Positions 4,303 to 61,967 of a DNA stretch of 64,000 nt are shown one piece after another. Source of the stretch: Candidatus Euphemobacter frigidus (lineage in GTDB: Bacteria; Auribacterota; Erginobacteria; Erginobacterales; Erginobacteraceae); assembly GCA_030765805.1 (NCBI GenBank), contig JAVCDH010000017.1, positions 2,467 through 66,466 of the forward strand, in the 5' to 3' direction. A model generated the notes under the pieces. It was not told where the DNA came from. It made no database searches and worked only from the letters and a program-made list of their open reading frames with translations. The position numbers were made by a program, and so were the translations under genes. Every line of letters begins with the position of its first letter. Position 1 is the first letter of the stretch.

Positions 4303-5982
4303 GCCGAGAATAGAGAGGCCTTCGGAGATCACCAGCTGGGTCGCCCGGGCCAGGGCCAGGCGGGCGGCCGTCAGGTCGGGATCATCGGTAATCACCCGGC
4401 AGTGATTGTAGTAGCTGTGGAAGATCGCGGCTAACTCCTCCAGATAGGCGGGGATAAGATGGTTCTGGTGGGTCAGGGCGGCCGTTTTAACCACCCCGGG
4501 GAAGAGAACAAGTTTCTTTATAAGTTCCAGCTCCGCCGGTTCGGAAAGACAGGCGAGATCAATCTTCGTAAAATCCGGCAGGGGGCGGCCGGTCACGGCC
4601 CGGAATTTCTTAAAGATGCTGTTGATGCGGGCGTGGGCGTATTGGACATAATAAACCGGATTGTCGTTTGTCTTCTTCCGGGCCAGTTCAAGATCGAAAT
4701 CAAGATGGCTCTCCTTCCGGCGGCGGACGAAGAAATAGCGGGCGGCGTCCTTGCCTACTTTATCCAGCACCTGTCGGAGAGAGATAAATTCACCCATCCG
4801 GGTGGACATCGAGAGCTTCTTCTTCCCCTCATAGAGCGTGGAGAGCTGGACAATGATAATATCCAGACGAGCGGGATTCAATCCCAGGGCTTTCATGGCT
4901 CCCTTCAGCCGGGCGATATAACCGTGATGATCGGGCCCCCAGAAGTCAATCATCTCTGAATAGCCCCTCCCGTACTTCTCCCGGTGATAGGCGATATCCG
5001 AACTGATATAGGTCAGATCGCCGTTTTTCTTTCTCAGGACGCGATCTTTCTCATCTCCATACGCCGATGAGCGAAACCAGAGAGCCCCGTCCTTTTCATA
5101 AGTGCTCCCCCGGGCCGCCAGGTCCCGTAAGACAGCCGTCACTCTACCTTCCGCCACCAGTTCGCTCTCACTCACCCAGGTCTCCATCTCGACACCGAAA
5201 TCCCTTAATTCTTTTTTGATCATCTCCAGCAACGCGCCGGAGGCGAAGGTGCCGCAGTAATCGATTGCCTCTTCCGGGGGTAGCTCGGACAATTCTCTTC
5301 CAGCCGGTTTCAGTCCTCCTTCCAGGATCCGGCGGGCCAGGCCGATGATGTAATCGCCCTGATAATAATCGGCCGGAAGATCAACTTCTTCGCCCCTCAA
5401 TTCACGCCAGCGCAGATAGACCGACTCTCCCAGGATCTTCATCTGGCGCCCGCGATCGTTCAGATAGTACTCCCGGGAGACCCGGTAACCGGCTTTGGCC
5501 AGGAGATTCGCCAGAACGTCCCCCACCGCCGCCTGCCGGCCGTGAGCCACAGTGAGCGGGCCGGTGGGGTTGGCGCTGACAAACTCCAGCAAGACCTTCT
5601 CCCCTTCCCCGGCTCTACTCTCCCCCCAATGTCCGGGAACTCGCAGAAGATGCCGGAGGGCGTCATGGAAGGCGCCCGGGGTAACTGTGAAGTTGAGAAA
5701 ACCCTTGCGGGGGTCGGCTTCCACCCGGGAGATGATCGTCTTCCGGCTGATCCGTTTCTCTATCAGGGAGGCAATGATCTTGGCCGTCTCAACCGGGGAG
5801 CGCTTTACCCGGGAGGCCACCTTCATCGCGATATTTGAGGCCAGATCACCATGCCCTTTCTCCCGGGGAATCTTAAGCTCGACTGAAGGCAGAGAGACGG
5901 GGGGAAGCAAGTTTTGAGCGGCTGCTTCCCGGAAAGCATTTCCGATCAACTCCGAGATACGATCGTTGATCTCAGGCAGCAT
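4279..5982 (-). CDS. argS: Arginine--tRNA ligase
   Basis: Motifs LEFVSANPTGPLTVAHGR, MSTRMGEF and YYVQYAHARI. Confidence 0.97.
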   Translation of the reverse strand: MLPEINDRISELIGNAFREAAAQNLLPPVSLPSVELKIPREKGHGDLASNIAMKVASRVKRSPVETAKIIASLIEKRISRKTIISRVEADPRKGFLNFTVTPGAFHDALRHLLRVPGHWGESRAGEGEKVLLEFVSANPTGPLTVAHGRQAAVGDVLANLLAKAGYRVSREYYLNDRGRQMKILGESVYLRWRELRGEEVDLPADYYQGDYIIGLARRILEGGLKPAGRELSELPPEEAIDYCGTFASGALLEMIKKELRDFGVEMETWVSESELVAEGRVTAVLRDLAARGSTYEKDGALWFRSSAYGDEKDRVLRKKNGDLTYISSDIAYHREKYGRGYSEMIDFWGPDHHGYIARLKGAMKALGLNPARLDIIIVQLSTLYEGKKKLSMSTRMGEFISLRQVLDKVGKDAARYFFVRRRKESHLDFDLELARKKTNDNPVYYVQYAHARINSIFKKFRAVTGRPLPDFTKIDLACLSEPAELELIKKLVLFPGVVKTAALTHQNHLIPAYLEELAAIFHSYYNHCRVITDDPDLTAARLALARATQLVISEGLSILGVSAPDSM

Positions 5983-8280: not shown

Positions 8281-8349
8281 TTATTACTCCTCAACATCAC
8301 CGGGGCAGGCTACCCCGGCCTATTGTTTGTTGACCCCTTGAGGCTTTAC

Positions 8350-8390
8350 GTTCGACGTTCAGTGTTGAACGTTGGACGTTCGACGTTCAT
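8350..8390. repeat. GTT(C/G)(G/A)AC heptamer tandem repeat, six units
   Basis: gttcgac gttcagt gttgaac gttggac gttcgac gttcat; same family as 59192-59239. Confidence 0.8.
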
Positions 8391-16619: not shown

Positions 16620-16623
16620 TATA

Positions 16624-16729
16624 AATTAGCGCCTTCGGCGCAAATTTGGGGAATAGGGATTAGGGAATAGGGATTGGTTCACCTAATTCCTATAAAATGT
16701 TGCTTATTCAATAGTTTTATTGAAATTCC
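16624..16729. repeat. Dispersed element of about 105 bp (UUCG hairpin, GGGAATAGGGATT array, AT-rich hairpin), copy A
   Basis: Near-identical to 25068-25174 and 61809-61920; contains the mrdA stop codon. Confidence 0.88.
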
Positions 16730-25059: not shown

Positions 25060-25067
25060 TTCTTATT

Positions 25068-25174
25068 AATTAGCGCCTTCGGCGCTAATTTGGGGAATAG
25101 GGATTAGGGAATAGGGATTGGTTCACCTTAATCCCTATAAAATGTTACCTATTCAATAGTTTTATTGAAATTCC
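25068..25174. repeat. Dispersed element of about 105 bp, copy B
   Basis: Near-identical to 16624-16729. Confidence 0.88.
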
Positions 25175-25208
25175 GATACAGTAAAATACAATTTCCTATG
25201 CGATTAAA

Positions 25209-25844: not shown

Positions 25845-26025
25845 GTAACTACTCAGGTTATCCGGTTCACCGTTCACGGTTCACGGTTTATTGCCTTGCG
25901 CGCTTCATATATCTTGAGATAGTTAATGAATCCGCGAACGGCAGTCCCGCTGTGGCGGGATTCAATCTTCATCACCCTCTAACCGTGAACCCTTGAACCG
26001 TGAACCCCTGAACCTGATTATTTAT
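25845..26025. mobile_element. Non-autonomous GTAACTACTCAGG-TIR element, 181 bp
   Basis: Left TIR is perfect and right TIR degenerate, with inverted GGTTCAC/GTGAACC arrays. No TSD visible. Confidence 0.8.
25874..25972 (-). pseudogene. Collapsed four-helix-bundle gene (32-codon ORF MKIESRHSGTAVRGFINYLKIYEARKAINREP)
   Basis: Its ends match the larger relic at 40968-41159. Confidence 0.75.
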
Positions 26026-40306: not shown

Positions 40307-40439
40307 GTAACTACTCAGGTTATCAGGTTCAAGGTTCAAGGTTCAAGGTTGAAAACATGTATAAAGCTGCAATTTCGGGAACCAGGCAACCGTGAACCGT
40401 GAACCCCTCAACCGTGAACCCCTGAACCTGAGTAGTTAC
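40307..40439. mobile_element. Empty GTAACTACTCAGG-TIR element, 133 bp, with an 8-bp TSD GCTAAATC
   Basis: Perfect TIRs; TSD at 40299-40306 and 40440-40447; supplies the ribH TAA stop. Confidence 0.9.
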
Positions 40440-40900
40440 GCTAAATCTTTATACAGGTTCGCCATCTCGATCGCGGCCATGGCGGCATCGAAGCCTTTAT
40501 TCCCCGCCTTGGTCCCCGCTCTTTCTATCGCCTGTTCCAGCGTATAGGGAGTGATGACCCCGTAAGAGACGGGGATGGCACTCTCCTGTCCGGCCGCGGC
40601 GATACCCCGGGTGACCTGGGTGCTGATATACTGCCAATGAGCTGTATCCCCTTTGATTACCGCTCCCAGGCAGATGACGGCGTCATACTTGTCGCCCCGG
40701 GCCATCCGGGCGGCAACCGCGGGGATCTCCCATGAACCGGGGACCCAGGCGACCTCGATATCATCGTCATCGGCCCCGTTTCTCTTCAGGGCGTCCACCG
40801 CTCCTTCGAGGAGCTTCCCGGTAATAAATTCATTAAAACGACTGATCACGATTCCAAACTTCAGCCCTTCAGCCGAAAGTTTCCCTTCAAATATCTTCAC
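40436..40900 (-). CDS. ribH: 6,7-dimethyl-8-ribityllumazine synthase
   Basis: Motifs SRFNEFIT, VPGSWEIP, LEQAIERAG and NKG. Confidence 0.96.
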   Translation of the reverse strand: MKIFEGKLSAEGLKFGIVISRFNEFITGKLLEGAVDALKRNGADDDDIEVAWVPGSWEIPAVAARMARGDKYDAVICLGAVIKGDTAHWQYISTQVTRGIAAAGQESAIPVSYGVITPYTLEQAIERAGTKAGNKGFDAAMAAIEMANLYKDLA

Positions 40901-40931: not shown

Positions 40932-41212
40932 GTAACTTCTCAGGTTGTCAGGTTCACGGTTCACGGTTCACGGTTCACGGTTTGTTGCCTTGCGCACTTC
41001 ATATGTCTTGAGATAGTTGATGAATCCACGAACGGCAGCACGTGTTCGTCTGACCTGCTCGTAAACAACTTTGAATTCGTTGGGCAAACGGTACACTTTC
41101 CGAGTCAATTCGCGTGCCAATTGCCAAGCATCAATATCTTAAAACCGTTCAATCTTCATCACTCTCTAACCGTGAACCTCTGAACCGTGAACCCCTGAAC
41201 TTGAGTAGTTAT
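40932..41212. mobile_element. GTAACTACTCAGG-TIR element, 281 bp, with an 8-bp TSD GTTTTCAC and a four-helix-bundle relic
   Basis: TSD at 40924-40931 and 41213-41220; inverted GGTTCAC arrays. Confidence 0.9.
40968..41159 (-). pseudogene. Four-helix-bundle (TIGR02436-like) gene relic with a nonsense codon and a central deletion
   Basis: MKIERF*DIDAWQLARELTRKVYRL joined to NEFKVVYEQVRRTRAAVRGFINYLKTYE. Confidence 0.82.
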
Positions 41213-41225
41213 GTTTTCACTTCAA

Positions 41226-41337
41226 ACTTTAGTCACCCTCCTTCGCTATTACATAGCTACGGCGGGTAAACTTTAGTCACTTTAGCTCACTTTAGTCACT
41301 TTAGTTCACTTTAGTCACTTTAGTCACTTCACTTCAC
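41226..41337. repeat. ACTTTAG(T/C)TC tandem array with an embedded REP-like unit
   Basis: Contains the reverse complement of the right part of 52331-52468; the ribBA TGA stop is in the last unit. Confidence 0.85.
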
Positions 41338-42533
41338 AGCCTATGACCCATCTTCTCCTTCTTGGTCTGGAGATAGCGATAATTATGTTTATTTGGGGGG
41401 ATCTTGATGGGAACAATCTCTGTAATACTCAGCCCGTATCCGCTCAAGCCGATAATCTTGCGCGGGTTGTTGGTCATAAGACGGATACTGGTCAAGCCTA
41501 ATTCCCGGAGGATCTGGGCGCCGATCCCGTACTCCCTGAGATCGGCATCGAAACCAAGCTGTTCATTGGCCTCTACCGTGTCGAGCCCCTGGTCCTGGAG
41601 GTAGTAAGCCATGAGCTTGCTCTCCAGGCCGATCCCCCGCCCCTCCTGGTCCATATAGAGAATGACCCCCCGGCCTTCTTTCGCGACTCTCTTCAGGGCA
41701 AAATCAAGCTGTTCCCCGCAATCACAACGTCTGGATTTAAAGACATCGCCGGTCAAGCACCTTGAATGTACCCGGACCAGGACATCCTTCTCTCCTGCTA
41801 CGTCTCCCATTATCAGCGCCAGATGAGGTCGGCCATTATCCACAGTTGACGTAAAGAGTTTGAGAATAAAATCCCCATAGGCGGTCGGGAGAAAAGTGGT
41901 CACTATCTCTGTAACCAGCTTCTCAGTGGAGCGGCGGAGATGGATCAGATCGGCGATCGTCCCCATCTTCAGTCCGAACTTCGCCTTAAACCGCCGTAAC
42001 TGGGGAAGGCGGGCCATGGTCCCGTCATCATTGATAATCTCGCAGATGACCGCGGCCGGTTCCAGACCGCTTAAACGCATCAGGTCAACCGCGGCCTCGG
42101 TATGACCGGCCCTGACCAGCACTCCTCCCGGCCGGGCTTCAAGGGGAAAGACATGTCCGGGTGTAACGACATCCCCCGGACCGGAGTGCGGGCGGGAGAG
42201 TATCTTTATCGTTCGGGCCCGATCTCCGGGGGAGATGCCGGTCGTTATCCCCCGGCTCGCGTCGACTGAGACCGTAAAGGCGGTGCCAAAGGTATCCCGG
42301 TTACTCTTTACCATCGGCTCCAACCCCAGCGTCGTCAACCGCTCCGCGGTCATCGGGACGCAGACCAGGCCCCGGCCCCGGGAGATCATGAAATTAATCG
42401 CCTCCGGCGTAACTTTCTCCGCCGCCATGACCAGATCCCCCTCATTCTCCCGGCCTTCGTCATCGGCCAAGATAATCATCTTCCCGACTTTTAAGTCCTC
42501 GACCAAGCTCTCTACTGGATCAAATCCCGTCAT
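41334..42533 (-). CDS. ribBA: Bifunctional DHBP synthase/GTP cyclohydrolase II
   Basis: Motifs [27 protein letters not shown] and QEGRGIG. Confidence 0.97.
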
Positions 42534-42612: not shown

Positions 42613-42637
42613 AAACAAGATAATGCCACTGTAATCT

Positions 42638-42805
42638 AATCTTCTTCCATCCGGACTCTACCGTCGGCACCGGTCTTTCACCGGTTCATTCCTCCCCGCT
42701 CTTCTTCAAAAGCGACGGGTATAGTTCGCGGGCTTACGGAGAGGCCGGTTAATCCACGCTCCTCCGATCACCGCCGGTCGGGAATTTCACCCTGCCCCGA
42801 AGATT
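42638..42805 (-). ncRNA. FMN riboswitch (RFN element)
   Basis: Segments CTTCGGGGCAGGGTGAAATTCCCGACCGGCGGT, AGCCCGCGA and GCCGACGGTAGAGTCCGGATGGAAGAAG; upstream of ribBA. Confidence 0.95.
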
Positions 42806-42862
42806 ATGTAGATACTATGGTAGACTAAGTCTAAAAAAGCAAGTAAAATATAAGTGATTCCT

Positions 42863-49576: not shown

Positions 49577-49661
49577 GATTAACAAGATTTACAGGATTTT
49601 AGAAAACAAACGCTTTAACGTCAAAACCAGCCGTTTTTTTATCTATCCTGTTAATCCTGTC
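49577..49661. repeat. Inverted ACAGGAT / ATCCTGT tandem arms around a short spacer
   Basis: GATTAACAAGATTTACAGGAT ... ATCCTGTTAATCCTGTC. Confidence 0.7.
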
Positions 49662-49790
49662 TAATAACTTTTTGAAATTCCGAAGCAGTAAGTTATCGCC
49701 TTCGACGCTAACTTAACAGAGACGCACTGAAACTACCGCCGATTGAAATATTTGATACTCTCCGATACTTTATTTTAGCGCGGCTCCAGC

Positions 49791-49976: not shown

Positions 49977-50390
49977 TTAAAATTGACGCTCGTAATGCTC
50001 TTGGCTGAAAGAGTAAGGATCGCGCCTGATCCAGTACGAGTCGGCGTTCCGGTCGAACTTCCGGTCGAGGGGGTTTTTCCCAAGTAACCGCATAATGAGC
50101 CCGATTACTGTAAAACCAATATAAAATACCAGACTTAGAACAAGGGTTGTGACTAAAAATGCTATCGTACGGGTAATTACCATCCAGACCAGATAGATCG
50201 GCTTCAGAGAATAGAGAAAGATCAGGCCCCAAAGATAGAGAATAACGGCTATCCCGTAGAATACCAAGTTAAAGGTCATAAAGCCTTTAATCAAGCCGAA
50301 ACCGGTCGCGACCACGATCAAAGCAGCCGGAACAAACCGGGCAAAGGCCTGTAAGTCTTTCCTGGTCGGATTAAAATCGTAATCAATCAA
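49977..50390 (-). CDS. SxtJ-family membrane protein
   Basis: Motifs LKPIYLVWM, LLGKNPL and DSYWI; synteny. Confidence 0.85.
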   Translation of the reverse strand: MIDYDFNPTRKDLQAFARFVPAALIVVATGFGLIKGFMTFNLVFYGIAVILYLWGLIFLYSLKPIYLVWMVITRTIAFLVTTLVLSLVFYIGFTVIGLIMRLLGKNPLDRKFDRNADSYWIRRDPYSFSQEHYERQF

Positions 50391-52317
50391 GGGTAAACTC
50401 CTTCATCCAGTCGAACTCTTCCTTCCACTCCTTCTGCTTCTTCTTATCAAGGATATAATTCCCCAGCACCAGATAGTCCATCTTGGTCCGCATAAAACAG
50501 CGAAAGGCTTCCTCCGGGGTGCAGACGATCGGCTCCCCGCGCACGTTGAAGGAAGTGTTCACGATCACCGGGCAGCCGGTCATCTCGTCAAATTTCTTGA
50601 TGATATCGTAATAGAAAGGGTTGTCCTCCCGTTCCACCGTCTGGAGGCGGGCGGAATAATTCACATGGGTGATCGCGGGGACATCCGAACGAACCTGGTG
50701 GATAATAGTCCGGAAACGAAGATAGTCTTCATTCCCGATCATCTTCTCCACTTTTTCCGCGTCTTCTATCCGGTTGACTTCTCTCAGTTCCTGAACTTCT
50801 TTCCGGAGCCGTTCTTTCTGCTCCGCCAGCAATCCGTCAAGTTCATCGGGACCCGGCATCGGCTTTCTTCGCTCTTCCAGGACATCCGTCACCAGCAGCA
50901 TATAGGGACTGGCGTAATCGGTCTCAAAGAAGTCGGCTACCCGTTCCCGCAGGACAGCCGGGGCGAAGGGCCGGAATGATTCCCGGAACTTGATCTTCAG
51001 GTTCATGATCGACTGCATCTCGGGGGAACGGGCGTCGCCCAGGATGCTGCGCGCCCCCAGGGCGCGGGGCCCGAACTCCATCCTCCCCCGGTACAATCCG
51101 ATCACATTCTGGTCCAGGATCAGATCGGCCACTCTCTTGGACAATTCCTCATCCGGAACGTACTCATAATCGGCCTTGATCTCCTTGAGATACCGCTCGA
51201 TCTCATCGTTGGTAAACTCGGGCCCCAGGTAGGAGCCTTTTTGAAAGTCCTGGCCCGGCGTCACCCGGCGGGGGTTTTCCAGATACTGATACCAGACGAA
51301 GAGGGCCACGCCCAGGGCGCCTCCCGCGTCGCTGGCGGCGGGCTGGATCCAGATATCTTTGAATGGCCCTTCCCTGAGGAGACGGCCGTTGGCGACGCAG
51401 TTCAGCGCCACTCCACCGGCCAGGCAGAGATTCTCCATCCCGGTCTCTTGATGAATATGCCGGGCCATCTTGAGTAAGATCTCCTCGGTAACATCCTGGA
51501 CTGAACGGGCACAGTCCATGTAAAACTGGGTCATGGTCGCCTCGGGCTTCTGGGGAGGGGCTCCGAAGAGCCGGCTGAACTTCTTCCCTACCATCTTCAA
51601 GCCTACGGGATAATCAAAATAATCGACGTTGAGCTTGAAGGAGCCATCGTCCTTGATATCGATAAGATTGTCCTTGATCAGATCGACATACTTCGGTCTC
51701 CCGTATGGCGCCAACCCCATCAACTTGTACTCGCCGGAGTTGACCTTGAAGCCACAGTAGTAGGTAAAGGCGGCATACAAAAGCCCCAGGGAGTGGGGGA
51801 AGTAGATATCCGCCAGCAACTCCACCCGGTTATCCCGGCCAACCCCGTAGCTGGTGGTCGTCCACTCCCCTACCCCGTCAATGGTGAGAATGGCCGATTC
51901 CTGAAAGGGAGAGGGGAAGAAGGCGGACGCGGCGTGGGATTCATGATGCTCCGGGAATATGATCTTTCCTCGAAAGCCCAGTTCCTTGCTCAGTGTCTCG
52001 CGGATATGTATTTTCTGCTTGAGCCAGATCGGCATCGCCTGATGGAACGAACGGATACCCCGGGGGGCGTAGGAGAGGTAGGTCTCCAGAATTCGTTCAA
52101 ACTTCAAGAGGGGCTTATCATAAAAACCGACATACTCGACCTCATCCATGGTGATCCCGGCCTCCCGGAGACAGTAATCGATCGACTGGCGGGGAAAATC
52201 AAGGTCGTGTTTGACCCGGCTGAAGCGTTCCTCCTGGGCGGCGGCGATAATTTCTCCATCCTTAATCAGGGCGGCGGCGGCGTCATGATAGAAAGCTGAG
52301 ATACCGAGGATGTACAT
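50383..52317 (-). CDS. NodU/CmcH/SxtI-family O-carbamoyltransferase
   Basis: Motifs AFYHDAAAA, HHESHAASAF, EFGPRALGARS and NTSFNVRGEPIV. Confidence 0.95.
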   Translation of the reverse strand: MYILGISAFYHDAAAALIKDGEIIAAAQEERFSRVKHDLDFPRQSIDYCLREAGITMDEVEYVGFYDKPLLKFERILETYLSYAPRGIRSFHQAMPIWLKQKIHIRETLSKELGFRGKIIFPEHHESHAASAFFPSPFQESAILTIDGVGEWTTTSYGVGRDNRVELLADIYFPHSLGLLYAAFTYYCGFKVNSGEYKLMGLAPYGRPKYVDLIKDNLIDIKDDGSFKLNVDYFDYPVGLKMVGKKFSRLFGAPPQKPEATMTQFYMDCARSVQDVTEEILLKMARHIHQETGMENLCLAGGVALNCVANGRLLREGPFKDIWIQPAASDAGGALGVALFVWYQYLENPRRVTPGQDFQKGSYLGPEFTNDEIERYLKEIKADYEYVPDEELSKRVADLILDQNVIGLYRGRMEFGPRALGARSILGDARSPEMQSIMNLKIKFRESFRPFAPAVLRERVADFFETDYASPYMLLVTDVLEERRKPMPGPDELDGLLAEQKERLRKEVQELREVNRIEDAEKVEKMIGNEDYLRFRTIIHQVRSDVPAITHVNYSARLQTVEREDNPFYYDIIKKFDEMTGCPVIVNTSFNVRGEPIVCTPEEAFRCFMRTKMDYLVLGNYILDKKKQKEWKEEFDWMKEFTLD

Positions 52318-52330
52318 TTTTAAGTGCCTT

Positions 52331-52468
52331 AAGTGACTAAAGTGAACTTCCGCCTTCGCTAGCCTCCTTCGCCATAGTAGCCTATGGCTACGGCGGCTGA
52401 AAAGCTACGGCGGATAAAAAAGTTTACCCGCCGTAGCTATGTAATAGCGAAGGAGGGTGACTAAAGTT
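52331..52468. repeat. 138-bp composite of tandem repeats and nested REP-like palindromes, copy 1
   Basis: Differs from 54496-54633 at two positions. Confidence 0.92.
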
Positions 52469-52499
52469 AAATCAGCTCCCTTTTTATGAATGTTAAATT

Positions 52500-54495: not shown

Positions 54496-54633
54496 AAGTG
54501 ACTAAAGTGAGCTTCCGCCTTCGCTAGCCTCCTTCGCCAAAGTAGCCTATGGCTACGGCGGCTGAAAAGCTACGGCGGATAAAAAAGTTTACCCGCCGTA
54601 GCTATGTAATAGCGAAGGAGGGTGACTAAAGTT
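54496..54633. repeat. 138-bp composite repeat, copy 2
   Basis: Direct repeat of 52331-52468; abuts the acyl-CoA dehydrogenase stop. Confidence 0.92.
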
Positions 54634-57561: not shown

Positions 57562-58020
57562 TTAAAATTTAATTTTATCCAACTCCGCGAAGGGGGAGAC
57601 ACTTCGTTCAACAGAGCAGTCACAACTCCCCTGGTTCAAATCCTGACCGCAAGACGGGCAGATCCCCCGACATTCCGGTTGACAGAGAGGTTTCACTGAA
57701 ACGGCGAGAATAATATCCGTCCTGATATCGTCCGTCAAGTCAATTGTCTCCCCGCGATCGGTCACCTCTCTCTGGACCTGAAAATCCTTTATCTCCAGCG
57801 GTGCTTCAAATTTCTTAAGGCACCGGGAACAGGTAAAACGGACTACCGTGGTCAGCCGTCCTCGAACCAGCAAGATATTGCCGGCCAGAGAAATATCCAG
57901 ATCATACTGTATCGGCCGATAAAATTCAGCCCCCGGATCCTGGATATCGATAATAGAGGGGGCTTCTTCTCCCCGCGCGGTCAAACCATGGGGAGGAATT
58001 GATCTGAGATCGATGAGCAT
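57562..58020 (-). CDS. DUF177/YceD family protein
   Basis: Motifs CSRCL and KPLCQPECRGICPSCG; precedes rpmF. Confidence 0.92.
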   Translation of the reverse strand: MLIDLRSIPPHGLTARGEEAPSIIDIQDPGAEFYRPIQYDLDISLAGNILLVRGRLTTVVRFTCSRCLKKFEAPLEIKDFQVQREVTDRGETIDLTDDIRTDIILAVSVKPLCQPECRGICPSCGQDLNQGSCDCSVERSVSPFAELDKIKF

Positions 58021-59078
58021 TATCCGGATTTAAAAGCCTTCACCACAGGGGTCGGAACGAATGCTGAGATATCCCCGCCCAGAAGAAAAATCTCCTTCAC
58101 CATTCTGGAACTGATATAGGAACAGGCTTCGCTGGGCATCAAGAAAATTATCTCCAGCTCGGGGGATAGCTTCCGGTTGGTCAGTGCCATCTGGAACTCA
58201 TACTCGAAGTCGGAGACCACCCGCAACCCCCGGATCAAGATCCGGGCGCCCTTCCGGGCGGCAAAATCAATCAACAACCCTGAGAATGACTCAACTTCGA
58301 CCTCCGGCAAGGATGTTATGGACTCACGAATTAACGAAAGCCTCTGAGATAGTGGGAAGAAGGGCTTCTTCTCCATATTGTCGGCAACGGCGATCGTCAG
58401 TTGGGGGAAGACCCGGGCGGATCTCTGAATCAGATCCAGATGGCCCAGAGTAATCGGATCGAAGCTTCCCGCGTAGATCGCCCGTTTCCCATTTTTCCTG
58501 TCGCTATTCATATCCCGATACAGAAATGTAAGTCCGGTCTGTCCGTATTTTTTAGCTTGAATCTCCTGCCATGATAAATCGGGGAGGACAGGCTTGGTTC
58601 GGTAAAAATGTTCGATAACCACCAACCCATCCTCGCGCAACATATCAAATTTCCCGATCAGAGACAATATATTTTCACCGATCGTCTTACCTTTCTCTCC
58701 GGAGCTTTCATACGGAGGGTCCGCCAATATCAGATCGAAACGGTCACCCCTCTCCCCCAGCCTTTTCAGGGCAGTCCGGTAATCGTCGGTAATAATCTCG
58801 CTCTCTTCTTCCACTGCCAGCCCAGCGATATTGGCCTTGATTATCTCCAGAACGGGGCCGGATCTCTCCACGAAGATAACCTTCTCCGCCCCCCGGCTCA
58901 GCGCTTCCAGCCCCAGAGCGCCGGTACCGGCAAAGAGATCCAGTACCCGGCTACCGGCCGCCGTATCCCCCAGAATGCTGAATAATGCTTCCCGGACCCG
59001 GTCGGCGGTGGGTCGGACTCGCCGACCACTGAGCGTCTTCAACTTTCGTCCCTTATATTTTCCCGCGATAATCCTCAT
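58020..59078 (-). CDS. rsmD-coaD: In-frame fusion of 16S rRNA m2G966 methyltransferase RsmD and phosphopantetheine adenylyltransferase CoaD
   Basis: RPTADRVRE, LDLFAGTG and DPPY, then with no stop YAGSFDPITLGHLD, RGLRVVSDFEYE and SSRMVKE. Confidence 0.9.
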   Translation of the reverse strand: MRIIAGKYKGRKLKTLSGRRVRPTADRVREALFSILGDTAAGSRVLDLFAGTGALGLEALSRGAEKVIFVERSGPVLEIIKANIAGLAVEEESEIITDDYRTALKRLGERGDRFDLILADPPYESSGEKGKTIGENILSLIGKFDMLREDGLVVIEHFYRTKPVLPDLSWQEIQAKKYGQTGLTFLYRDMNSDRKNGKRAIYAGSFDPITLGHLDLIQRSARVFPQLTIAVADNMEKKPFFPLSQRLSLIRESITSLPEVEVESFSGLLIDFAARKGARILIRGLRVVSDFEYEFQMALTNRKLSPELEIIFLMPSEACSYISSRMVKEIFLLGGDISAFVPTPVVKAFKSG

Positions 59079-59090
59079 ATTAAAAAAAGT

Positions 59091-59318
59091 TTGAAGTGCC
59101 TAAAGTGTGCTGCCGACTTCGCCAAAGTAGCCTCAGGCTACGACGGCTGAAAAAGTGACTAAAGTTAAATTACCTCATTGTGACGCTCTGTGTCGAATGT
59201 TGAACGTTGGACGTTGAAAGTTGAGCGTTGAACGTTCATCCCTTCCAACTTTAGTCACTTTAGTTCACTTTAGTCACTTTAGTCACTTTAGTTCACTTTA
59301 GCTCACTTTAGACACTTC
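59091..59318. repeat. Composite intergenic element: AAGTG arm with REP unit, GTTGAAC array, inverted ACTTTAGTC array
   Basis: 59109-59158 is identical to 1379-1428; heptamers at 59192-59239; array at 59247-59318. Confidence 0.87.
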
Positions 59319-59320
59319 TT

Positions 59321-61393
59321 CTACCCGACATCGCCCAGTTCGAACCGATCTCCATAACGCTCCATAAGCCGGCGGCGGATGGTGGACAGCTCGGGGTCCT
59401 TGAGAGCCGGATCGCGTTCAAGCAACTTGAAGGCTTGCCGGCGCGCAAACTCCATCAGGCGGATATCGGCAATAATATTTCCCATCCGGAGCTCCGGCAG
59501 CCCGGTCTGCTGGGTTCCGAAGAACTCACCGGGCCCCCTGATCTCCAGATCCTCTCGCGCGATCAAGAAACCGTCATCGATGGACTTTATCACCTGGAGG
59601 CGGCGGCGCGCGTCCTCGGTCCGGGGATTGCCCTGGAGGATACAGTAAGCCTGTCGGCGGCTCCTTCCCACCCGTCCCCGGAGTTGATGGAGCTGGGCGA
59701 GACCGAAACGCTCGGCATTCTCAATCAGCATAACAGTCGCGTCGGGCATATCGATACCGATCTCCACCACCACCGTCGATACCAGGATCATGGTCTTCTT
59801 CCGCCGGAAATCATCCATGGCCCGCTGTTTCTCCCCGGCCGTCATCCGGCCGTGAACCAGGCCCAGACTCAAACCGGGAAAGATCCGGCGCTTCAAATGC
59901 TCGAACATCTCAGTAGCGGCCTTCACCTCCAGCACCTCCGATTCTTCCACCAGGGGATAGATGATGAACGCCTGCCCGCCCTGCGCGGCCTGCTCCCGGA
60001 TAAAGGCGTAAGCCCGGTTCAGTCGCTCCGGTCCGATCCAGTAAGTCTTTACCTTCTCCCGGCCCGGGGGCATCTCATCCAGAATTGAAACATCAAGGTC
60101 TCCATAGACGGTCAGGGTCAGGGTCCGGGGAATCGGAGTCGCCGTCATTACCAGAACGTGAGGTTGAAACCCCTTCTTCCTTAACTCCGAGCGTTGCCGG
60201 ACCCCGAATTTATGCTGCTCGTCGATCACGATCATCCCCAGTTGCTTGAAGGCTACCTTCTTCTGGATCAGGGCGTGGGTCCCGGCCACAATCTGAATCG
60301 TTCCCTCCTCTATCTCCCGCAGGATTCTCTTCCGCTCCGCGCCCTTTACCCCGCCGGTCAGCAGGACCGTCTTCAGCCCCAGAGGGGCCAGCTCCCGCTG
60401 GATATTTTCATAATGCTGGGCCGCCAGGATCTCGGTTGGAGCCATGATGGCTCCCTGGTAGCCGTTATCCACCGTGGTTAAAAGAGCGCAGACCGCGACC
60501 ACCGTCTTCCCGGAACCGACATCTCCCTGGAGAAGACGGTTCATGGCCCGAGCGGTGGTCATATCCTCCTTGATCTCCCGGATCACGCGCCGTTGCGCGC
60601 CGGTTAAATTAAAGGGGAGCTCCGCGATATAGCGGTCCCGGAGGGGAGTAACCGGTGAGTGGGGCAGGCTCTCCGCCTGGCTTGCCCGTCTCTCCCGTTT
60701 CAGCCCCAGCGCCAGTTGAAGGATGAAGAACTCATCAAGAATCAGCCGCTTGCGGGCTGCCTTCAGGGCTTCCCGGTCAGCCGGGTAATGGATGGTCCTG
60801 ATGGCTTCGTCTAGGGGAATGACCTGCCAGCGGGCACGGAGGTCGTCCGGAAGTAACTCGGGGACCGAGGGCAGATACTGATCCAGGGCCTGCTTGATGA
60901 TCGTCCGCAGGGCCTTCTGATTCAGACCTTCGGTCAGGGGATAGAGCGGAACAATCCGGCCGGCCTGACTCAGCTCCTCCCCCCCTTCTTTCAGCCGTTC
61001 GAACTCTGGATTGGCCATCTGAAGCGTTTGATACCGTTGAACCTTTCCGGTGAAAACATACTCCTCTCCCTGCTTGATAACATTATCCAGATACGCCTGG
61101 TTAAACCAGAGGCAGGGCAGCCTTCCGCTTCCATCGTCAACTATCAGCCGAAATACTTTCTTCCCCTTCTTGGTCTTGCTCAAGCCCGTGGCCAGGACCT
61201 CTCCCTTGATAACGGCAAATTCTCCTTCCTCAAGAGCCGCGATGGGAGTAAAGTGCCGCCGGTCCTGGTAATCCCGGGGGAAGTAATAGAGAAGATCTTC
61301 TACCGTCCGAACATCCAACCGGCCGAAGAGCGTGGCCCGGCGCGGGCCGACCCCTTTGACATACTGGACGTCATTATGTAAGACTGATCTCAT
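59321..61393 (-). CDS. recG: ATP-dependent DNA helicase RecG
   Basis: Motifs QGDVGSGKT, DEQHKFG, MTATPIPRT and QLRGRVGR. Confidence 0.97.
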   Translation of the reverse strand: MRSVLHNDVQYVKGVGPRRATLFGRLDVRTVEDLLYYFPRDYQDRRHFTPIAALEEGEFAVIKGEVLATGLSKTKKGKKVFRLIVDDGSGRLPCLWFNQAYLDNVIKQGEEYVFTGKVQRYQTLQMANPEFERLKEGGEELSQAGRIVPLYPLTEGLNQKALRTIIKQALDQYLPSVPELLPDDLRARWQVIPLDEAIRTIHYPADREALKAARKRLILDEFFILQLALGLKRERRASQAESLPHSPVTPLRDRYIAELPFNLTGAQRRVIREIKEDMTTARAMNRLLQGDVGSGKTVVAVCALLTTVDNGYQGAIMAPTEILAAQHYENIQRELAPLGLKTVLLTGGVKGAERKRILREIEEGTIQIVAGTHALIQKKVAFKQLGMIVIDEQHKFGVRQRSELRKKGFQPHVLVMTATPIPRTLTLTVYGDLDVSILDEMPPGREKVKTYWIGPERLNRAYAFIREQAAQGGQAFIIYPLVEESEVLEVKAATEMFEHLKRRIFPGLSLGLVHGRMTAGEKQRAMDDFRRKKTMILVSTVVVEIGIDMPDATVMLIENAERFGLAQLHQLRGRVGRSRRQAYCILQGNPRTEDARRRLQVIKSIDDGFLIAREDLEIRGPGEFFGTQQTGLPELRMGNIIADIRLMEFARRQAFKLLERDPALKDPELSTIRRRLMERYGDRFELGDVG

Positions 61394-61808: not shown

Positions 61809-61920
61809 AAATTTGCCCCGTCCCCAGCGGGGCAAATTTAGGGAATGGGGATTAGGGAATAGGGATTGGTTCACCTAATTCTTATAAAATATCGCCTATT
61901 CAATAGTTTTATTAAAATCC
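61809..61920. repeat. Dispersed element of about 105 bp, copy C (different left hairpin)
   Basis: Body matches 16624-16729; hairpin AAATTTGCCCCG-N7-CGGGGCAAATTT. Confidence 0.85.
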
Positions 61921-61967
61921 CGAAGCGCCGGATCGGCGCTCCGCTTCCCGGATTATTACTGCTCTAT

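Follow-up and report, generated by a model that had tools for sequence, protein, structure and literature searches.

What occupies the spacer between recG and the gene that follows it, and did it once hold a gene of its own? In the 64,000-nt stretch of DNA analysed here (the window), positions 59079-59320 form an intergenic spacer in which three repeat families are stacked and whose two bounding genes both lie on the minus strand. An earlier note on this DNA had described the region as an apparently empty cassette between recG and rsmD, with two facing arms, a REP insert, a short unique stretch and seven GTTGAAC-type heptamers. Every part of this description was recovered (Table 1), with two amendments: the heptamer array is there, its count being about six units and one partial (TRF, 6.0 copies of GAACGTT at 59195-59236, 80% matches), and recG was correctly named, whereas "rsmD" is really an RsmD-CoaD fusion. 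The RecG protein matched Pfam RecG_wedge, DEAD, Helicase_C and RecG_dom3_C (matches obtained on the identical protein) and is 72% identical to RecG of Candidatus Erginobacter occultus, phylum Auribacterota. With respect to the fused gene, rsmD and coaD are separate in the relatives L206, L208 and L210, and in L206 a 295-nt spacer with hairpin-forming repeats splits one from the other; the NCBI gene call for the same contig (L002) covers only the CoaD half of the ORF.

Table 1. Spacer between recG and rsmD-coaD, its flanking genes, and other repeat-armed loci of the window (positions are those of the window; arms of the spacer are named in the mRNA sense).
Feature	Position	Strand	Remarks
recG	59321..61393	-	Upstream host gene by transcription; TAG stop 59321-59323; from translation
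5' arm	59247..59318		7.4 units ACTTTAGTC/ACTTTAGTTC; minus strand = (AAGTGNCTA)n
Heptamer array, second word GAACGTT/GTTGAAC	59195..59238		About 6 units; in mRNA sense, after RBS-like GGAAGGG and ATGAAC
Unique inner stretch	59167..59194		28 nt; in mRNA sense, last bases TAA, immediately beside the 3' arm
Inner part of 3' arm	59152..59166		Plus strand AAAGTGACTAAAGTT
REP-like hairpin inserted in 3' arm	59108..59151		About 43 nt; splits the AAGTG/CTAAAGT arm
Outer part of 3' arm	59093..59107		Plus strand GAAGTGCCTAAAGTG; 14 nt from rsmD start codon
rsmD-coaD fusion ORF	58020..59078	-	Downstream host gene, 352 aa; PF03602/PF05175 and PF01467
AAGTG-type arm with 110-nt composite REP insertion	52320..52470		Directly upstream of the start of gene 50383-52317 (-)
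Second long ACTTTAGTC array	41226..41329		6.4 units, REP fragment inserted; directly after the stop of gene 41334-42533 (-)
Facing GGTTCAC/GTGAACC arms with internally deleted PF05635 relic	40951..41200	-	Weak PF05635 match, E 0.027
Same GGTTCAC arms with more deeply deleted relic	25863..26014	-	MKIE…AVRGFINYLKIYE; E 1.5e-7 versus the other relic

Read in the mRNA sense, the 5' arm begins 2 nt past the recG stop (TRF, 7.4 copies of ACTTTAGTC at 59248-59317, 90% matches) and its inner terminus is CTAAAGTT, which will be seen below to be typical of a family. The facing arms are 89-100% complementary: the outer piece of the 3' arm pairs with 59300-59318 (89%) and the inner piece with 59247-59261 (100%). 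Shuffled sequences would lead one to expect CACTTTAG 0.8 times in the window, which in fact contains 15 copies of this word. Six independent assemblies from salt-lake metagenomes gave the spacer without a single base difference, which rules out an assembly artefact. A CRISPR array was considered and rejected, since the units are contiguous, have a 9-10-nt period and enclose no spacers.

When folded in the mRNA sense, the spacer reached -84.8 kcal/mol (z -5.3). An outer stem of 15 bp closes the whole spacer, starting 3 nt past the recG stop and ending 22 nt before the rsmD AUG, and nested inside it is an inner stem of 18 bp that involves the inner piece of the 3' arm. Scans of the spacer for sigma-70 promoters and intrinsic terminators found none, indicating that recG and rsmD-coaD are most likely co-transcribed. 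At Rfam gathering thresholds, an FMN riboswitch was the only match in the window, with no rRNA and nothing in the spacer. This riboswitch (103.8 bits, 42635-42808, minus strand) lies upstream of the gene at 41334-42533; further downstream, an ACTTTAG-armed and a GGTTCAC-armed element are wedged between that gene and ribH (40436-40900).

Other loci of the window show comparable layouts. The earlier note had counted at least four words arranged in a similar arm architecture, a count that held for GGTTCAC (clear facing arms at the two loci in Table 1), for a AATCCTGT-type 9-mer (clear facing arms at 49577-49665) and for GAACGTT (a self-facing array at 8348-8388) and was not confirmed for GGGAAT, which has no clear facing arms in the window. 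As the note had also proposed, the facing arms of the spacer mirror the layout around relics of four-helix-bundle genes: the GGTTCAC/GTGAACC arms enclose two PF05635 relics, one of which (40980-41159) retains N- and C-terminal pieces and the other (25886-25963) only MKIE and the C-terminus, so that for this word the window itself documents successive stages of decay by internal deletion. A tblastn search of the 64-kb window with ten diverse PF05635 proteins returned these two relics and no intact gene, and no PF05635-like coding sequence was found in 59079-59320. Given this lack of any PF05635 trace, former occupancy of the spacer can be read only from its arm termini, its ATGAAC start context and its TAA stop context. 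The window also contains three copies of an approximately 100-nt composite element (16620-16716, 25060-25175 and 61825-61925), each located just past the 5' end of an ORF on the minus strand and made up of a GC hairpin, two copies of GGGAATAGGGATT, GGTTCACC and an AT-rich tail that contains TTCAATAGTTTTATTGAA, a small palindrome.

The arms of the spacer belong to a widespread family. An array-first scan, requiring three consecutive CACTTTAG units and taking one genome per species, yielded at least 119 loci in about ten phyla, including Desulfobacterota, Planctomycetota, Bacteroidota, Chlorobiota, Calditrichota, Chloroflexota, Poribacteria and Aegiribacteria. Among the matches listed, neighbouring arrays followed the order (CTAAAGTG)n to (CACTTTAG)n, that is, AAGTG-type before CACTT-type, in 61 instances versus 6 in the reverse order. 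In 50 aligned pairs, again among the matches listed, the outer termini (AAGTG… and …CACTT) and the inner termini (…CTAAAGTT and AACTTTAG…) were constant, and the recG-rsmD spacer, read in the mRNA sense, has exactly these termini. The inner distance between arms was usually 8-130 nt (median about 60), and only 1 of the 61 arm pairs enclosed an intact cargo, empties thus exceeding filled copies by about 60 to 1 in this array-first search, both figures applying to the matches listed. Inspection of the 50 aligned pairs, not backed by a formal test, revealed no target-site duplication outside the arms. In two different MAGs (L009, 5550-5770; L092, 1890-2080), a conserved ORF of about 58 aa (MMNAFTMPTRQIRPRDLG…) lies between ACTTTAG arms; it had no Pfam or NCBIfam match and may represent a second cargo type.

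The most informative of the filled copies was found in L043 (Desulfobacterales), in which arms identical to those of the spacer enclose an intact 115-aa ORF matching PF05635 (E 8e-18), TIGR02436 "four helix bundle protein" (E 2.7e-23) and PDB 2RLD (E 1.9e-20), an entry from Bacteroides thetaiotaomicron with five chains. The same arms enclose a cargo pseudogene in a Pirellulales MAG (L108), 76% identical to the Desulfobacterales copy, and a 40-codon N-terminal cargo relic in L094. In filled cassettes, which read TAACTTTAGTCAC here, the cargo stop codon occupies the position that the TAA of the unique stretch holds against the 3' arm in our spacer. A cargo-first search of metagenomes with the cargo protein gave 80 loci, and 30 homologues (64-89% identical) with enough flanking sequence were tested. 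In 30 out of 30, AAGTG-type units were confined to the upstream flank and CACTT-type units to the downstream flank, nested pairs accounting for the two exceptions, with a median of 3 units upstream and 4 downstream. The earlier note had staked its idea in advance on the existence of filled versions and on an association between arms and cargo; with the intact L043 cassette and 30/30 armed homologues, both were found and the idea was not refuted. Homologues at 43-54% identity displayed the same layout with other words (ATTGCGG, AATTTTT, AAGTTAT, ACTTAGGAGT and others), the upstream unit being in each case the reverse complement of the downstream unit, which indicated that the arm word co-varies with the cargo subfamily.

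With regard to their genomic setting, the arms of these cassettes start at or overlap the stop codon of one host gene and end a few bases ahead of the start codon that follows. Cargo and upstream host ORF share their orientation in 41/42 cases, cargo and downstream host ORF in 36/42, in agreement with the proposal of small-gene cassettes that sit at operon junctions. In several cassettes (for instance L043, 2590-2605, and L130, 1945-1960) the first arm unit apparently contains the upstream host stop codon (…AAG TGA GCT…), in which case translation of the host gene would end at a stop provided by the insertion. In a relative of L133, a metatranscriptome contig carried host gene, 5' arm and cargo on one RNA, and arms were abundant in metatranscriptome contigs. 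Comparison of one host junction across six divergent metagenomic lineages gave a dN/dS of 0.04-0.08 for the cargo at a dS of 0.4-1.0, indicating a functional protein under strong purifying selection. Across the same lineages, the 3' arm was invariant in 18 of its first 19 columns, as opposed to 37% of the fourfold-degenerate sites (p = 2e-7); the arm sequence itself, beyond its ability to pair, is therefore constrained or continually renewed. Arm duplex energies showed no G·U strand asymmetry (sense/antisense 24 vs 23, p = 0.48), and hence no G·U signature that would place selection on pairing at the RNA rather than the DNA level. The profile matches of the cargo were to PF05635/TIGR02436, with no match to a transposase family.

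The history of this particular junction was then read from relatives whose RecG is 66-76% identical, an ortholog comparison that the earlier note had suggested. L206 (75% RecG identity) has the same word in minimal arms, GAAGTGCCTAAAGTT … AACTTTAGGCACTTC, around some 230 nt of unrelated filling; L207 (76%) has a degenerate trace; L208 (73%) has facing arms of another word, (GCGGAGG)x3 … (CCTCCGC)x3, at 5067-5223; L209 (71%) has GGGAATG and AAGTTCR arrays directly past the recG stop, with synteny broken; and L210 (66%) has AT-rich hairpins only, without arrays. These differing states indicate that the junction has been repeatedly occupied and turned over, and the arms of L208 that different word families have occupied it. 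The outer arm pair shared by the window and L206 is nearly identical in spite of the 75% RecG identity, suggesting that the arms are selected or renewed, a poor fit to a purely dead relic. In a contig from a related-population metagenome (run X10), 47 nt of the nonamer array, about 5 units (window 59247-59295), were absent, revealing copy-number polymorphism of the arm, and in the source metagenome the nonamer array was about 100 times deeper than its flanks.

The arms have themselves been invaded. The REP-like insert of the spacer has a second exact copy (38/38) at 1382-1419, where 0 were expected by chance, and related copies at 52360-52405, 54525-54570 and in L037. As a candidate REP/BIME-type extragenic palindrome, it is represented by two exact and two variant copies in the window and one in L037, its hairpin being modest (z -0.9 to -1.9) and its depth in metagenome X1 about 15 times that of the flanks. 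REP/MITE-like palindromes lie inside AAGTG-type arms at 1379, 59108, 52340 and 54510 of the window and also in L008, L030, L043 and L094, bearing out the suggestion that such cassettes attract further insertions. Two near-identical composites of about 130-150 nt (52320-52470 and 54497-54625) each combine an AAGTG arm with a double REP. The module formed in our spacer by ATGAAC and the heptamers (mRNA sense) is also found within the ACTTTAG arms of L010, with a related array in L008, and L072 and L089 contain nested facing arms of a second word. The cargo can be interrupted as well: in L183-L189 (e.g. L183, 1700-2000) an 84-aa GIY-YIG gene (PF01541, E 2e-14) lies inside the cargo at a conserved GANY|RE motif, at the same host junction that has an uninterrupted cargo in L130, L132 and L133, and this looks like an invasion of the homing-endonuclease type. 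Among the cargo classes foreseen in the earlier note, only the four-helix bundle was confirmed, and a nuclease appeared only as this secondary insertion within a four-helix-bundle cargo.

We consider it quite probable that the spacer is a cargo-less copy, decayed or non-autonomous, of a family of promoterless, IVS-like gene cassettes residing at protein-operon junctions. A full cassette would follow the host stop codon with (AAGTGNCTA)n ending in CTAAAGTT, a short leader and a gene of about 115 aa for a four-helix-bundle protein (PF05635/TIGR02436, S23p/Avd-like); on its 3' side, AACTTTAG(NCACTTTAG)n ending in CACTT would lead to the host start codon. At our locus, recG and rsmD-coaD would be read through the spacer as a single transcript, in which the arms would pair into the 15-bp outer and 18-bp inner stems and loop out everything between the two genes. 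By analogy with the rRNA elements, the arm stem is probably a substrate of RNase III; folded out and processed in this way, the insertion would be nearly neutral, at low cost to the host. The cargo may have been lost through internal deletion, or the element may have come already empty, and its arms would later have taken up the REP-like hairpin and now hold the heptamer array of a second word. This reading brings together what was observed of cassette architecture, polarity, the link between word and cargo, co-orientation, selection on cargo and arms, the excess of empties and secondary insertions into arms. The empty cassette of the earlier note accordingly finds support in filled siblings with identical arms, in armed cargo homologues (30/30) and in the GGTTCAC decay series, while the loss at this very locus is what we infer from them.

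Three other explanations were weighed. That three families arose by independent slippage in a permissive spacer, with their facing orientation a coincidence, would account for the 47-nt variant, as short-unit arrays do vary by slippage, and for the many small arrays in the window. Such unrelated microsatellites are scarcely credible, however, in view of the order bias of 61 to 6, the constant termini and the identity of the word across phyla (all among the matches listed), the 15 occurrences of the word where 0.8 were expected, and the 30/30 association with cargo; polarity and cargo association together exclude independent microsatellites. We also regard as unlikely that the element is kept by the host as an intercistronic device, a stem-loop or a word-bound protein (e.g. 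of the IHF/HU type) setting the stability or translation of recG and rsmD-coaD, whatever its cassette origin. The outer arm pair retained in L206 at only 75% RecG identity would be in line with such a role, as would arms more conserved than synonymous sites, their placement 2 nt past the stop and 14 nt before a start that has no Shine-Dalgarno sequence, and the reading of paired tandem heptamers as regulator sites in the account given of Geobacter metallireducens (Aklujkar et al. 2009, PMC2700814). Yet turnover at the junction, with another word in L208 and no arrays in L210, fits poorly with it, the unit number is polymorphic in the population and one arm is interrupted by a REP insertion. 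Moreover, the same arms at unrelated junctions in about ten phyla are better explained by a selfish element than by a locus-specific regulator.

A closer competitor, towards which we remain slightly on the sceptical side, is a non-autonomous mobile element whose empty arm pairs multiply and are mobilised or preserved in trans by a protein that a filled copy with the same word encodes, the recG-rsmD copy having arrived empty. Arm pairs with intact cargo are as rare as 1/61, with a median inner length of about 60 nt (among the matches listed), and their termini are sharply defined; the arm word tracks the cargo subfamily, the arm sequence is conserved beyond complementarity, the nonamer array is present at about 100 times the depth of its flanks in the source metagenome, and the same junction carries different words in related genomes. 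The ratio of about 60:1, the co-variation of word and cargo and the conserved arms would fit a relation of the MITE type, the protein working in trans on the word of its own arms. Against it stand the lack of any target-site duplication among the aligned pairs and of a known transposase or recombinase fold in the cargo, the fact that no insertion polymorphism was caught, and the lack of an intact cognate cargo within the 64-kb window. We know of no mobility enzyme for such elements, and to our knowledge the PF05635 family comprises only a reverse transcriptase accessory factor (Avd) and uncharacterised proteins. We find it rather doubtful, though conceivable, that a pentamer of the four-helix-bundle (S23p/Avd-like) protein recognises its own arm word, with roughly one subunit per unit (arms typically having 3-5 units), and acts in trans to propagate or maintain filled and empty pairs; that would make these cassettes a new class of autonomous and non-autonomous mobile elements, spanning at least ten phyla, of which the ORF-bearing 23S rRNA IVS would be a special case.

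The nearest known relative of the cassettes is the S23p-encoding IVS of 23S rRNA, present in Leptospira, Coxiella burnetii, Haemophilus, Xanthomonas and Brucella. Both have cargo of the same family (PF05635/TIGR02436), both have terminal inverted repeats that close a long stem (in our spacer, the 15-bp and 18-bp stems), and both depend on host transcription. The Coxiella IVS is 428 nt long; its terminal repeats form a 28-bp stem that RNase III cuts, and its decaying ORF is adjoined by three or two tandem GACAGAT heptamers depending on the strain (PMC4990558). It thus resembles the cassettes in having tandem repeats of variable number in the arm beside the ORF (7.4 units in our spacer, about 5 fewer in the variant), in a 28-bp stem equal to 4 x 7, and in an ORF that decays while the RNA element persists. 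Unlike the rRNA elements, the element of the window lies between protein-coding genes and not in helix 25 or 45 of 23S rRNA, and its spacer has no S23p/PF05635 ORF, which is present in siblings with identical arms (L043, L108, L126-L174). Cassette arms also differ in having 3-15 units, each a word of 7-10 nt that changes with the cargo subfamily, many empty copies are found per genome, and the cargo is under strong purifying selection instead of decaying.

Several other systems share some of these traits. In Geobacter metallireducens, "global regulator binding sites" have been described that come in pairs and are built of four or five heptanucleotides in tandem (Aklujkar et al. 2009, PMC2700814); as multicopy, intergenic, inverted pairs of heptamer arrays said to loop back on the opposite strand, they are probably, judged by their description, the same phenomenon in one genome, although the passages of that paper devoted to them read them as IHF/HU binding sites and draw no link to four-helix-bundle genes or IVS. 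As in MITEs, many short copies share termini with a rarer protein-coding copy and are intergenic and mutually nested; unlike MITEs, they showed no target-site duplication on inspection, their termini are tandem arrays and not unique inverted repeats, and the partner protein is no known transposase. Avd, the accessory protein of DGRs, belongs to PF05635 and forms a pentameric four-helix-bundle barrel (PMC10053308). The cargo is homologous to it by fold and family, and the 2RLD entry has five chains, whereas no reverse transcriptase or template/variable repeats were noted beside the cassettes, where they were not searched for systematically. Integron cassettes are likewise small genes without a promoter of their own, which point the same way as an outside promoter and are flanked by sequences able to fold back, but those described here are scattered singly in operons instead of stacked at attI, with no attC structure and no integrase seen; an integron-cassette reading was rejected. 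In a literature search of incomplete coverage, so that a prior description is possible, no account of tandem-repeat-flanked PF05635 cassettes outside rRNA was found. What appears to be new is the presence, at operon junctions in many phyla, of PF05635 cassettes whose tandem-repeat arms are matched in word to the cargo, the rRNA IVS and the Geobacter heptamers being already known.

These findings bear on the annotation of genomes as well as on the biology of the family. A PF05635 gene between facing arrays of a single word is a simple signature to search for, and it accounts in MAG annotation for many puzzling arrays of heptamers or nonamers, along with low-complexity "hypothetical proteins". 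Such arrays risk being mistaken for CRISPR-like repeats: a published figure legend (PMC10910872) names a "23S rRNA IVP" among proteins whose association with CRISPR adaptation modules or arrays is new, and it may be speculated that this association arose because tandem-repeat arms are picked up by CRISPR-array finders. As far as we know, the only role understood for Avd is that of assisting DGR reverse transcriptases. The 23S rRNA IVS, with the S23p ORFs inside them, have been on record since about 1990, and their origin, their spread and the role of the protein are an old puzzle. Our results suggest a much larger family, residing at operon junctions in many phyla, of which the rRNA elements are the visible tip and whose arm arrays offer a handle on the origin of the rRNA insertions and of their four-helix-bundle proteins.
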